From Candidatus Helarchaeota ASGARD archaeon Hel_GB_B (GTDB lineage Archaea; Asgardarchaeota; Lokiarchaeia; Helarchaeales; HEL-GB-B), in assembly GCA_005191425.1 (NCBI GenBank), contig SUPR01000064.1, forward strand, positions 1 to 21,032: a stretch of DNA of 21,032 nucleotides, read 5' to 3'. This document shows, piece by piece, positions 6,234-10,355 of this stretch. The notes below the pieces were generated by a model that did not search any database, had not been told where the DNA came from, and saw only the letters and a list, made by a program, of their open reading frames with translations. Position numbers and translations under genes: made by a program. Every line of letters begins with the position of its first letter. The first letter of the stretch is position 1.

Positions 6234-6360
6234 CTATACATATTACATTATCAAAATTTTTTAATTTTTATTTTTAAAATTTTTAAAAATTTATTAAAAT
6301 TCAATAAAATATTTTGTAACAAAAATTATTTATTAAAATCTGTTGAATATGACACTAATT

Positions 6361-6495
6361 TTAGTTATTCCAAGGCCATATAAAAGGAGTATCAGTGAAG
6401 TTTAAAAAAAAATCACTATTTACCGACTTTTTTCTAAAAATTCCGTTCTTTACTTTAAATCGTGTCATATATATCCTTTGGTGTTTATTATGCAT
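6361..6495 (-). CDS. Candidate Trp leader peptide (44 aa from ATG 6495, or 35 aa from ATG 6468): ...MTRFKVKNGIFRKKSVNSDFFLNFTDTPFIWPWNN
   Basis: Hand-translated. Two TGG codons near the stop; located in the 5' region of trpB2; flanked by a 9-bp inverted repeat (6347-6355 and 6462-6470). Confidence 0.45.
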   Translation of the reverse strand: MHNKHQRIYMTRFKVKNGIFRKKSVNSDFFLNFTDTPFIWPWNN

Positions 6496-7218: not shown

Positions 7219-7485
7219 TTATTTTATCAAATTAACTTTTGCTGTAACTATTGTAATAACGTCCAATTGCTCCAGAAATATGAATAAATAGGGAAAACCA
7301 TCACTTTTTCTTACTATATACCCATATCTAAATTCATCATTTTCAGATTCTTCAATAGTCGCAATAATTTCGCCTTCAATATAATCCCCAAACTTTTCTT
7401 TTGCATCTTCTTTCATGTCAAGCCCAAAAAAATCACCAGTAAATCTATAAAACTCCCAAAATTTATCGTGCTCTTTTAATTTCAT
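7219..7485 (-). CDS. Small acidic hypothetical protein
   Basis: 88 aa ORF with a GGTGA Shine-Dalgarno-like motif upstream of the ATG. Confidence 0.65.
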   Translation of the reverse strand: MKLKEHDKFWEFYRFTGDFFGLDMKEDAKEKFGDYIEGEIIATIEESENDEFRYGYIVRKSDGFPYLFIFLEQLDVITIVTAKVNLIK

Positions 7486-7808: not shown

Positions 7809-9440
7809 TTATTTTTTTCTAAATTTCATCAGATATAAATTCATTCCATTAATCATAGCTTGAATACTGGACATAACAATATCCGGATTAACAGCCCTAG
7901 CATTAATATAGTTTCCAAACATATCTTCGAGTTTTACTTTTACTCTTCCAAGTGCATCAGTACCACCGGTGATAGCATCTAAATGATATTCACTAAGGAA
8001 CAATTTTCCATATCCGAATTGTTCCCAAACTTTAGCTAATGCATTGTAAGATGCATCAACAGGGCCAACACCAATATCGGCTGCAACTTTCTCCGCCCAA
8101 TCATTATTTGTCTTTACTTTTAACCTAATAGTAGCAGATGGTGTGACATTTTTACCACATATTACGGATAATTCCTCTAGTTTTATTGTTTGTTCTTCAT
8201 TTGGTACCTCACCAATTACAGATATGGCAATTTCGTATAAGTCCATATCAGTAATTTTTTTACCCTTGTCGCCAATTTTTTTAACGCGATTTCTGATTTC
8301 ATTGAATTGGACGTCATTGACTATTATCCCGAAACTTTCCAGTTTGGCACCTAATGAATGACCGCCGGTATGTTTACCAACTTCTATTGATTGTTCAAGG
8401 ATGTCAGTCAAGGTATCTTTACGGTTGATCCCAATTAATTCAGGAGTTAATGGCTCATATGTCCTAGGGTTTTCAATTACTGCATGAGCATGAATACCAC
8501 TTTCGTGTTTAAATGCATTTGTTCCGACCATTGGAAAATTAACTGGAATTTCTAAGCCACTAAGTTTTTCAACTAATTTAGAGGTTTCATAAAGGTATTT
8601 ATATTTAATATTTGTAGAAATACCATATAATGCATAAAGTGACATAACTACTTCTTCCATTGCTGCATTTCCAGTGCGCTCGCCAATTCCAAGGACTGTT
8701 GTTTGGACTTGAGAAGCGCCCATTTCGACTCCAGCCAATGTATTTGCCGTTGCAAGCCCAAAATCATTATGACAGTGTACAGATACTCTGACACCCTTTG
8801 GAAACTGCTCAATATTTTTCTGAATAATATAAGAATAAACTCTTGGAACAACGGTACCAACAGTATCAGGAATATTAATTCGAGTAGCGCCAGCTTCAAT
8901 TGCCATTTTATTGGCTTTAATTAAGAAATCTAAATCGCTTCTAGTAGCATCTTCTGCTGAAAATTCTATCTTTTTTCCAAAATGTTCTTTGGCATATTCA
9001 ATTTCAGTGGTAATAGCTGAAAGAACTTGTTCCGGCGTCATTTTTAATTTTTCTTTCATATGAAGTTCGGATGTGGCAATAAAAACGTGTATGGCGTCCA
9101 TATCACATTCAATAACTTTATCAATATCTTCACGATTTATTCTCGCTAGTCCGATTATTTCAGCATCTAAACCTAATTTAGAAATTTCCTTACAAGCTAA
9201 ATAATCACCTTCGGATACAATTGGCATACCTGCTTCAATAATGTCCACGCCTAATTTGTTTAATTGGGTCGCTATTTGAATTTTTTCTTGAAGAGTAAAA
9301 GAAATTCCAGGTGTCTGTTCACCATCTCGTAAAGTCGTGTCAAAAATATAGACTTTTTCAGGCAAATTCAAATTTTTAAGCAAATCTTTAATGTGCTGCG
9401 ATACTAAAATTTTATCAATGTTTTTACTTTCAGACATCAC
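7809..9440 (-). CDS. leuA: 2-isopropylmalate synthase / (R)-citramalate synthase family (LeuA/CimA) with C-terminal regulatory domain
   Basis: FDTTLRDGEQTPG, HCHNDFGLA, GIGERTGNA, FKHESGIH, GVGPVDA, ITGGTDA; GAGGT SD upstream. LeuA and CimA cannot be separated by eye. Confidence 0.85.
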   Translation of the reverse strand: MMSESKNIDKILVSQHIKDLLKNLNLPEKVYIFDTTLRDGEQTPGISFTLQEKIQIATQLNKLGVDIIEAGMPIVSEGDYLACKEISKLGLDAEIIGLARINREDIDKVIECDMDAIHVFIATSELHMKEKLKMTPEQVLSAITTEIEYAKEHFGKKIEFSAEDATRSDLDFLIKANKMAIEAGATRINIPDTVGTVVPRVYSYIIQKNIEQFPKGVRVSVHCHNDFGLATANTLAGVEMGASQVQTTVLGIGERTGNAAMEEVVMSLYALYGISTNIKYKYLYETSKLVEKLSGLEIPVNFPMVGTNAFKHESGIHAHAVIENPRTYEPLTPELIGINRKDTLTDILEQSIEVGKHTGGHSLGAKLESFGIIVNDVQFNEIRNRVKKIGDKGKKITDMDLYEIAISVIGEVPNEEQTIKLEELSVICGKNVTPSATIRLKVKTNNDWAEKVAADIGVGPVDASYNALAKVWEQFGYGKLFLSEYHLDAITGGTDALGRVKVKLEDMFGNYINARAVNPDIVMSSIQAMINGMNLYLMKFRKK

Positions 9441-9489
9441 TAATTACCTCTTTTATTTTGTTAAAACTATTAACAATTAATAAATTCAT
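9430..9489 (-). CDS. Candidate uORF MNLLIVNSFNKIKEVISDV overlapping the leuA start out of frame
   Basis: Hand-translated. ATG 9489 lies inside the 3' arm of a hairpin; TGA at 9430-9432 lies just inside leuA. Confidence 0.3.
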   Translation of the reverse strand: MNLLIVNSFNKIKEVISDV

Positions 9490-9549
9490 TCCAAAGTTCT
9501 CTATGTTAGAAAAAAAGCCAAAAATTTTACCGAACTTTGAGAACTGAAT
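9484..9549 (-). promoter_or_regulatory. Leader hairpin upstream of leuA (16 bp, two single-nt bulges, 32-nt loop)
   Basis: mRNA ATTCAGTTCTCAAAGTTC (9549-9532) pairs with GAACTTTGGAATGAAT (9499-9484). Confidence 0.55.
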
Positions 9550-9556
9550 CCCTCAT
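9527..9556 (-). CDS. Candidate leader peptide MRDSVLKVR covering the 5' arm of the leuA leader hairpin
   Basis: Hand-translated ATG AGG GAT TCA GTT CTC AAA GTT CGG TAA; preceded by a minimal ATG GTG TAA (9568-9560). Confidence 0.3.
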   Translation of the reverse strand: MRDSVLKVR

Positions 9557-9722
9557 TTTTTACACCATTAATAGTTGTACGAATAAAAATTGAAAATGTT
9601 TTAAAAAATATAAACTTTTTGCTTCTTTAATTTAAAAGTCAAATTCTTTTTTACTTTTAAAACTGCAAGGGAAAATTCAATAGACCCGCAAATTTAAATA
9701 AATTAAGTAAATAGTTTTTAAT

Positions 9723-10355
9723 ATGGAAATTATAGATAAAGTATATTCGATTGACTCCATTGGATTTGATAGTAATTGCTACATAATAGGAAAAAATGAA
9801 ATTACAATTGTTGATACGGGAGCATCGCCAGAATACGCTAAATTTATAATTGAAAAGATTCGATCTTTTGGGTTAGACATTTCAAATATTCATAAAATAA
9901 TTATTACCCATCGACATCCAGACCATATTGGAGGACTTAAAAAATTATTGGAATTACTATCATCTAATTCAATTTTAGTATATGTACATAAAAAATTTAT
10001 CACTTATTATAAATTATCTAATGTGAAAGGATTATCAGATGGAGAAATTTTAAATTTAGATGGTTTATTATTTAAAATAATTTATACTCCGGGACATACG
10101 GAAGATTCGATATGTCTTTATAACGAGAAGTATAAGATTTTGATATCGGGAGATACTGTCTTTTCCTTTGGCAACATAGGAAGAGTAGATTTACCAGGAG
10201 GAAATATAAAAAACTTAGTTAAGTCTATTGAAAAATTGGCTAAATTAGATGTTGAATTTTTACTTCCAGGACATATGGACTTTGTAATGGAAGGAAATAA
10301 ACATATTAAGCAATCACTTCAATTTGCTAAAAGTAATTTAATTATTTATGAATAA
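9723..10355 (+). CDS. MBL-fold metallo-hydrolase (glyoxalase II-like)
   Basis: THRHPDHIGG (HxHxDH), TPGHT, LISGDTVF, PGH. Confidence 0.92.
   Translation: MEIIDKVYSIDSIGFDSNCYIIGKNEITIVDTGASPEYAKFIIEKIRSFGLDISNIHKIIITHRHPDHIGGLKKLLELLSSNSILVYVHKKFITYYKLSNVKGLSDGEILNLDGLLFKIIYTPGHTEDSICLYNEKYKILISGDTVFSFGNIGRVDLPGGNIKNLVKSIEKLAKLDVEFLLPGHMDFVMEGNKHIKQSLQFAKSNLIIYE

Follow-up and report, generated by a model that had tools for sequence, protein, structure and literature searches.

A short upstream reading frame with a fixed Val-Leu codon pair and a downstream oligo-T tract as a candidate attenuator in the leuA leader of Helarchaeales

The window analysed here is a stretch of 21,032 nt from the genome of Candidatus Helarchaeota archaeon Hel_GB_B (assembly GCA_005191425.1, contig SUPR01000064.1), and the element in question is the 5' leader of its leuA gene (9430-9620, minus strand). 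The leader holds a short upstream open reading frame (uORF) that is preceded by a Shine-Dalgarno (SD) motif, carries a Val-Leu codon pair and is followed by an oligo-T tract, an arrangement that recurs in front of leuA in related genomes. The window has a GC content of 28% and encodes archaeal proteins (deoxyhypusine synthase, AMMECR1, a TrpY-family regulator and a TrpB-like enzyme), and the source names on LeuA homologues place it in the Helarchaeales (Asgard archaea). The leuA product passes NCBIfam model NF002085 (2-isopropylmalate synthase) at 627 bits, the cut-off being 517, and relatives have an ATG at the position equivalent to its start. The features of the locus, including the leuA ribosome-binding site (RBS) and a possible transcription factor B recognition element (BRE), are listed below.

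7809-9437, minus strand: leuA, with HMGL-like, HCS_D2 and LeuA_dimer domains
9435-9450, minus strand: leuA RBS, with SD GAGGT (9450-9446), start ATG (9437-9435) and an alternative GTG at 9440
9607-9620, minus strand: predicted leuA-leader promoter, a BRE-like purine-rich AAAAAG (9620-9615) followed by the TATA box TTTATATT (9614-9607)
9563-9566, minus strand: putative SD of the uORF, GGTG, 6 nt before its ATG and part of ATG-GTG-TAA
9527-9556, minus strand: leader uORF, ATG AGG GAT TCA GTT CTC AAA GTT CGG TAA, encoding MRDSVLKVR
9539-9544, minus strand: candidate sensor codons GTT CTC (Val-Leu)
9510-9524, minus strand: oligo-T tract TTTTTGGCTTTTTTT, with T5 (9524-9520) and T7 (9516-9510), a candidate hairpin-independent archaeal pause or termination site
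9478-9502, minus strand: 3' arm that can pair back on the uORF, either GAGAACT (9501-9495) with AGTTCTC (9545-9539) or GAACTTTG with CAAAGTTC
9430-9489, minus strand: second uORF (MNLLIVNSFNKIKEVISDV), out of frame with leuA and ending 8 nt into it, treated as incidental

We compared 18 Helarchaeales leuA loci (65-100% protein identity, this window included) from seven species genomes, one metagenome contig and 10 contigs found via LeuA homologues; loci are given L numbers, and a scan of metagenomes with LeuA added one usable close relative, L074. The gene upstream of leuA varies among them (a metallo-beta-lactamase (MBL)-fold gene, ilvD, DUF3795 or an 89-aa ORF) while the leader block is constant, and this retention of the leader with leuA was counted in favour of a regulatory link between the two.

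A uORF of 6-14 codons with an SD-like motif is present in all 18 leaders. In this window it is MRDSVLKVR, running from 9556 to the TAA at 9529-9527, as had been described in an earlier reading of the same DNA (hereafter the original prediction). A purine-rich SD-like motif lies 10-15 nt 5' of the uORF start in every leader, as (A)GGTG(A/T) in 13 and as weaker variants in the rest. Across the genome, GGTG is most frequent at -12 to -9 from the first ATG of long ORFs, and the spacing of the uORF SD fits this peak; SD use was judged from motif enrichment since the 16S rRNA gene is not in the assembly. The miniature frame ATG-GTG-TAA (9568-9560) of the original prediction exists in the window and is not conserved as an ORF; its GGTG is the SD of the longer uORF.

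Start codons of the uORF are ATG, GTG or TTG, and the offset from start to GTT is 9, 12, 15 or 18 nt, so that GTT is in frame throughout. The layout consists of the start, one to four codons, [D/Y/N/E]-x-Val-Leu, zero to eight free codons and the stop, with Asp (11 leaders), Tyr (five), Asn (one) or Glu (one) at position -3. The Asp codon is GAT, once replaced synonymously by GAC. Past Val-Leu the peptide is unconserved even within a family (KVR, NIQKK, KE and RYQTNKK, each followed by the stop). The Val codon is GTT in 18 of 18 leaders and the Leu codon is CTC in 15 and CTT in three, never TTA, TTG, CTA or CTG; among Leu codons of this genome CTC makes up 4.1%, CTT 16.7% and TTA 53%. The original prediction had weighted the hairpin above the codons as evidence; the signal lies in the invariant, in-frame GTT-CT[C/T] of the first uORF, not in the second, and the hairpin of this window, taken as a whole fold, is at chance. 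ARAGORN found only seven tRNAs in the assembly, tRNA-Leu-GAG among them, a set too incomplete to be used. No second copy of the leader motif was found elsewhere in the genome, where the leuA leader is the sole full instance.

A T run follows the uORF in every leader, mostly with a C just before it; it is seven or eight nt long (T7-T8) in all five same-family leaders and shorter (T4-T6) in the remaining ones. The tract begins 27-43 nt past the GTT in 15 of the 18 (Fisher's method against shuffles, 3.8e-5), and its distance to leuA is far looser (71-130 nt); by this comparison, the position of the tract is anchored to the uORF. In this window U5 starts 20 nt and U7 28 nt after the Val codon. A terminator scan returned 0 sites, and a GC-rich hairpin directly before U5+U7 is absent. 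Oligo-T terminators are scored by at least five consecutive T on the non-template strand, and both the T5 and the T7 run are of that kind. Genome-wide, runs of T7 or longer occur about 12 times as often just past stop codons as within coding sequence. Archaeal RNA polymerase needs no hairpin to terminate at oligo-T, aCPSF1/FttA cooperates with U tracts, and a Lokiarchaeota aCPSF1 complements the Methanococcus maripaludis enzyme (PMC13675443); aCPSF1 is encoded in this genome (965 bits). Because the tract is conserved in position and lies in the loop of the hairpin described below, it points to premature termination of transcription rather than to control at the level of translation alone.

The leader also has a conserved promoter position. 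The TTTATAT box of the original prediction (9614-9608) is present, and a TATA-like box occurs 42-63 nt 5' of the uORF start in 16 of the 17 leaders with enough upstream sequence. From its position, transcription is predicted to start at about 9585-9578, about 25-30 nt upstream of the uORF, which would make the uORF the first element on the transcript, behind a 5' end of about 15-35 nt across leaders. The original prediction had allowed that the hairpin might instead belong to the promoter of the divergent MBL-fold gene, which starts at 9723 on the plus strand. That gene has a TATA-like box of its own (TTTAAATA, 9693-9700, plus strand) about 23 nt 5' of its ATG and therefore separate from the 9430-9620 leader, and the leader has its own TATA box; the two promoters thus appear distinct.

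The remaining conserved property is complementarity between the uORF and the leader downstream of it. The 16-pair bulged hairpin of the original prediction is the minimum-free-energy fold of 9485-9560, and the shifted register AGTTCTC (9545-9539) with GAGAACT (9501-9495) is complementary as had been proposed. The register of the helix differs between lineages, and shuffle and swap tests were used for this reason. In the targeted duplex test, the 5' part of the uORF (start to Val-Leu) was set against its own downstream leader and compared with dinucleotide shuffles; p was below 0.05 in 9 of 18 leaders, with a combined Fisher value of 4.8e-7 that is overstated, the sequences being related. In the swap test, the leader's own downstream region paired better than the regions of other families (mean -2.95 kcal/mol, Wilcoxon p 0.005). 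The 3' arms vary in sequence and register by lineage, each remaining complementary to its own uORF start or Val-Leu region, as with UGAGGG/CCCUCA plus UCAGUU/AACUGA (L074), AUGAGG-AU/AUCCUCAU (L106), AGUUCUCAA/UUGAGAAUU (L002), AUGGGG/CCCCAU (L115), GGGGUAU/AUGCCCC (L108) and UGGAUCGC/GCGGUCCA (L005). The shifted register recurs as GUUCUC/GAGAAC in the nearest genome, L002. A loop of 32-60 nt contains the remainder of the uORF and the T tract. Read against these relatives, the hairpin of this window looks like a local and fairly weak version of a recurrent pairing. The comparison of orthologous leaders suggested in the original prediction thus returned a uORF kept in 18 of 18 and a pairing that varies by lineage, and did not recover the second uORF.

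Other pairings did not exceed chance. RNAalifold on a MAFFT alignment of five same-family leaders left the 3' arms unaligned and gave only a weak pairing between the T tract and the leuA SD. Direct tests were at chance for the T tract against the leuA RBS (p 0.13), for the Val-Leu block against the leuA RBS (p 0.95) and for the uORF SD against the T tract (p 0.99). No second, competing structure above chance was found among these, and a ribosome on the uORF would block the sole supported pairing. The original prediction of translational control by branched-chain amino acids is upheld in part: control by branched-chain supply is the most economical reading, and no pairing that sequesters the leuA SD exceeds chance. 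We also observed a perfect 9-bp inverted repeat (AACTATTAA / TTAATAGTT, 9576-9568 and 9473-9465, minus strand) that flanks the uORF SD and the entire hairpin and lengthens the minimum-free-energy helix. By eye it is not conserved in L106, and it may be a chance occurrence in AT-rich DNA.

Taken together, an SD-led uORF kept in frame, a rare and fixed Leu codon, a U tract anchored to the uORF and the Leu-run leaders on orthologous leuA genes (described below) argue for a sensor read by the ribosome as the likeliest function, and the leader probably reports branched-chain amino-acid supply. We put the chance at about even that 9430-9620 is, more specifically, a leuA 5' leader with an attenuator of a minimal leader-peptide kind, working at an archaeal U tract that lacks a hairpin. 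Translation of the uORF, Leu/Val supply as the signal, termination at the T tract and the sign of the response are what we infer from the conserved sequence. The 16 sequencing runs listed for positions 9000-9900 of the window are all DNA metagenomes. In the proposed sequence of events, transcription would begin about 25-30 nt 5' of the SD-led 9-codon uORF, at the start predicted from the TATA box, and the leading ribosome would read the uORF while RNA polymerase is still within the leader. Its progress across GUU-CUC (Val, then a rare Leu codon served by tRNA-Leu-GAG) would report the supply of charged tRNA, and its position would set the read-through of polymerase at U5+U7, with the tract as a hairpin-independent pause or termination signal and termination either intrinsic or assisted by aCPSF1/FttA. 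Once polymerase has passed the tract, the downstream segment would pair onto the uORF and close it, so that the uORF would be readable only during transcription. In this window, a ribosome whose A site holds CUC would extend approximately to where the RNA leaves a polymerase positioned at the end of U7; the distance from CUC to the end of U7 is 32 nt here and 30-47 nt among relatives.

Several observations weigh against this reading. The sensor would depend on a single Leu codon, with one or two Val codons in addition, and not on a run, although these codons are invariant, and we know of no precedent for a single-codon starvation sensor. The fold-energy comparison suggested in the original prediction put the whole folds among their shuffles: the 76-nt fold of 9485-9560 has z +0.08, and the 161-nt leader fold has z -0.93, with 41 of 200 shuffles equally good. 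The targeted duplex test exceeded chance in this window only marginally (p 0.032), and the hairpin of this window, judged alone, is not evidence. Two loci (L110 and L112) have no pairing between the uORF and the downstream region. The T tract lies within the loop of the hairpin and not after it, and the hairpin therefore cannot serve as a classical terminator or antiterminator. Intergenic T runs are common in a 28% GC genome, with T5 or longer in 53% of 60-nt post-stop stretches, and in the same post-stop stretches T7+ runs are only 1.8-fold more frequent than A7+ runs. Given this modest strand bias, we infer the terminator role of the tract rather than observe it. The 'GG' before the Asp or Tyr codon is retained though the residue it encodes differs, and GTT and CT[C/T] are fixed as nucleotides; selection at the RNA level therefore contributes to conservation of the block. 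TATA-like sequences also occur closer to leuA, at about -29 to -59, in about 6 of 18 loci (L002, L004, L005, L106, L107 and this window), and could yield a short leuA mRNA without the leader; in this window the proximal box is TTTATTAA (9483-9476, minus strand), inside the 3' arm and 39-46 nt before the leuA ATG. Lastly, among the other branched-chain genes of this genome, ilvB has a short SD-led 5' untranslated region without a leader ORF, and ilvD is present only as a contig-end fragment.

Four other accounts of the leader explain some of these observations, and the original prediction supplies a fifth. The leader could act as a translational switch, in which the uORF-downstream hairpin is the ON state, a ribosome on the uORF frees the 3' arm to partly occlude the leuA RBS (OFF), and the T tract is mere loop. 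Masking the uORF as a stand-in for a stalled ribosome did lower predicted RBS accessibility, from a mean of 0.47 to one of 0.43 (Wilcoxon p 0.004), with a drop in 12 of 18 leaders, and a control mask had no effect. The shift is small, however, and the direct RBS-pairing tests were not significant; the sign also does not suit a starvation sensor, as leuA would be turned off by a stall, and the anchoring of the T tract to the uORF is left unexplained, which makes this switch unlikely. We consider it equally improbable that M-x-[D/Y]-x-V-L is an arrest peptide that stalls its own ribosome on free leucine or another metabolite, the codons themselves not being sensed. TnaC, SpeFL and the cat/cmlA leader peptides work as arrest peptides, and conservation up to and at Val-Leu, with free sequence and a free stop position (zero to eight codons) after it, is what would be expected of one. 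Against this, Val and Leu never occur in another synonymous codon family, and at least part of the conservation is that of the nucleotides; the -4 residue varies (Arg, Gly, Trp or the initiator) while the 'GG' is kept, the -2 residue is free, and five to eight residues would be very short for a metabolite sensor.

Invariance of the block in nucleotides beyond coding needs would also suit an RNA or DNA operator, GG-NAT-NNN-GTTCTY, bound by a regulator, with the ORF secondary. The orphan 88-93-aa protein that is a conserved leuA neighbour in several families (the Helarchaeales-specific 88-aa protein here) could conceivably be that regulator, and the actinobacterial LEU element was proposed by its authors to be protein-bound because mutation of its Leu codons left regulation intact (PMC1262725). 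Yet the SD and an in-frame start are kept in 18 of 18 leaders despite indels, all of them multiples of three, the motif is asymmetric and lies at about +35 to +50 from the predicted start site, it occurs once in the genome, and the 88-aa protein has no match to a nucleic-acid-binding fold; an operator thus has a low probability, on a par with the switch and the arrest peptide. Slightly less probable still is the absence of any regulatory link, with uORF and T tract forming a separate micro-gene or short RNA, or a leader without a sensing role, and the window hairpin a product of chance. Whole-fold energies at chance, the abundance of intergenic T runs and the proximal TATA-like box 5' of leuA would all agree with this, but the element stays with leuA while its neighbours change, orthologues in sister families carry Leu-run leader ORFs, and lineage-covarying complementarity beyond the T tract needs read-through transcripts. 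The original prediction had drawn a parallel to eukaryotic ATF4; in such ATF4/GCN4-like control, a short first uORF sets reinitiation at an overlapping, inhibitory second one. Both systems would have uORFs in the leader of an amino-acid-responsive gene, and the second uORF (MNLLIV..., from the ATG at 9489) does exist in this window, out of frame over the leuA start. It is specific to this genome, however: it has no SD, an ATG-started ORF is missing at that place in L106, L107 and L109, and the peptides encoded in the remaining leaders are unrelated. A conserved second uORF being absent, the two-uORF logic fails, and translation here starts at SD motifs, not through scanning and reinitiation, so we regard ATF4/GCN4-like control as very improbable.

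Returning to a ribosome-read attenuator, related leaders in other Lokiarchaeia bear on its plausibility. In two sister families (f4 and f5; best leuA matches at 53-60% identity), an SD-led leader ORF of 32-42 codons ending in LLLL(L) (e.g., MKMLQNIKDNYNMSNLGQVLSLGLLLNLLLLLL) precedes leuA in 27 of 29 loci; of the two exceptions, one is cut short and one has an assembly gap. A further family, f6 (L058), has a 19-codon uORF (MTYSVTRGERVLLVSVRRL, with ERVLLV) at about -207 to -150 of leuA, which looks like a form midway between the short type of Helarchaeales and the long one of Lokiarchaeia, while the high-GC family f7 has no obvious leuA leader. Based on the Leu-run ORFs of f4 and f5 and the intermediate form of f6, leader-ORF control of leuA would be a trait of the whole class. 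The two leader types share the orthologous gene, an SD-led ORF at about -200 to -90 and a hairpin tied to that ORF, and some Leu-run leaders have x-V-L-S-L before the run. They differ in that the Lokiarchaeia ORFs have 32-42 codons, four to seven Leu and a hairpin after the stop, whereas those of the Helarchaeales have 6-14 codons and a single Val-Leu, with the 5' arm of the hairpin inside the ORF and the stop codon and oligo-T in its loop. Our literature searches returned no published description of archaeal Leu-run leuA leaders. A more detailed proposal is that a single rare CUC beside Val in a 6-14-codon ORF lets the ribosome directly gate polymerase termination at oligo-U, intrinsic or dependent on aCPSF1/FttA and with no terminator hairpin, that the 3' arm later shuts the uORF, and that this design arose within Lokiarchaeia out of the long Leu-run leaders or gave rise to them; we offer it tentatively, as a whole that is rather doubtful.

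We made some further observations on these leaders. Those with a Leu run (L008-L018, L032-L033 and L055-L073) comprise the 27 of 29 f4/f5 loci plus L032 and L033, with four to seven terminal Leu. The stop codon of their ORFs is about 91-99 nt from leuA, and 3-6 nt beyond it starts a hairpin about 55-60 nt long, the outer stem of which pairs an anti-SD-like with an SD-like sequence (ACCUUCU/AGAAGGU). In the L058 uORF, the codons CUG GUU UCC pair with GGAACCAG directly past its stop.

Among known systems, the closest in outline is enterobacterial leuL (Rfam Leu_leader, RF00512). It likewise has a short SD-led ORF before leuA, a rare codon for the end product (the Escherichia coli leu leader uses rare Leu codons), a downstream U tract and a pairing that involves the ORF. 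However, leuL has four consecutive Leu codons, as opposed to one here, and the Helarchaeales leader lacks the GC-rich hairpin before the U tract, has a hairpin that encloses the tract, and would work with an archaeal polymerase and archaeal termination factors. Rfam gave no match to the leader at the gathering score, and only chance snoRNA and miRNA matches up to E = 10. Attenuation of E. coli pyrBI relies on ribosome-polymerase coupling at a U-rich pause; it senses UTP and uses a terminator hairpin. The likeness is that proximity of the ribosome to polymerase at a U tract would decide read-through, and the differences are the UTP sensing, the terminator hairpin and the spacing, which here varies over 30-47 nt among relatives. 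Leader-peptide attenuation is a textbook bacterial mechanism, and our literature searches found no description of it in archaea; neither the string 'attenuat' nor the phrase 'leader peptide' occurs in a 2026 review of transcription termination across domains (PMC13675443). The actinobacterial LEU element also has a candidate leader ORF with Leu codons before leuA and a conserved structure unfit for classical attenuation, but in that element the run of Leu codons forms a base stem or pseudoknot with the leuA SD (PMC1262725), whereas Val-Leu/RBS pairing was at chance here.

The Helarchaeales leader would thus represent a second, much shorter leuA leader design beside the Leu-run type, defined by a fixed rare-codon Val-Leu pair and an anchored, hairpin-less U tract. 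If the attenuator reading is true, coupled transcription and translation would serve metabolic sensing in Asgard archaea, the interplay of ribosome, polymerase and aCPSF1/FttA at U tracts could be tested on an element of about 120 nt, and a minimal single-codon amino-acid sensor would exist in the closest prokaryotic relatives of eukaryotes. For annotation, the locus is a caution that conserved micro-ORFs of 6-14 codons can form the functional core of an archaeal 5' leader.

Two minor observations concern short ORFs and leader turnover. A look-alike SD-led mini-ORF (MKVLLLKKY; GGTGAT, 6 nt, ATG) lies at about 11360-11400 of contig C105 (plus strand), with no long ORF on the same strand for 700 nt downstream, and is probably a chance occurrence. 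In L006, the SD-bearing AAGGTGAT is tandemly duplicated (…AAGGTGATTTAGGTTTTTTAAGGTGATATAGCTTG) at about -185 to -155 of leuA, which suggests that the 5' end of that leader was recently rearranged.

Turning to the neighbours of leuA, there is no SD between TTTAAATA and the ATG of the divergent MBL-fold gene (9693-9723, plus strand), and its mRNA is probably leaderless or nearly so. The gene for the 88-aa protein (7219-7485, minus strand) is a conserved leuA neighbour in Helarchaeales: this window and L107 have it on the downstream side of leuA, and L113 and L115 have it upstream in divergent orientation (61-76% identity). We found just 10 clusters of this protein, all from Helarchaeota/Promethearchaeota or without a name, except for one labelled Deferrimicrobium. 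It has no Pfam family, no atlas match and no match among PDB folds (best E 0.25, weakly NTF2/SnoaL-like), and its AlphaFold model is confident (predicted local distance difference test score 89.6), with two helices and a four-stranded sheet. Elsewhere in the window, the trpB2 leader ORF (MTRFKVKNGIFRKKSVNSDFFLNFTDTPFIWPWNN, 6359-6467, minus strand) has a T9 run (GAT TTT TTT TTA) within the ORF itself, as opposed to the leuA leader, in which the T tract lies 3' of the stop.

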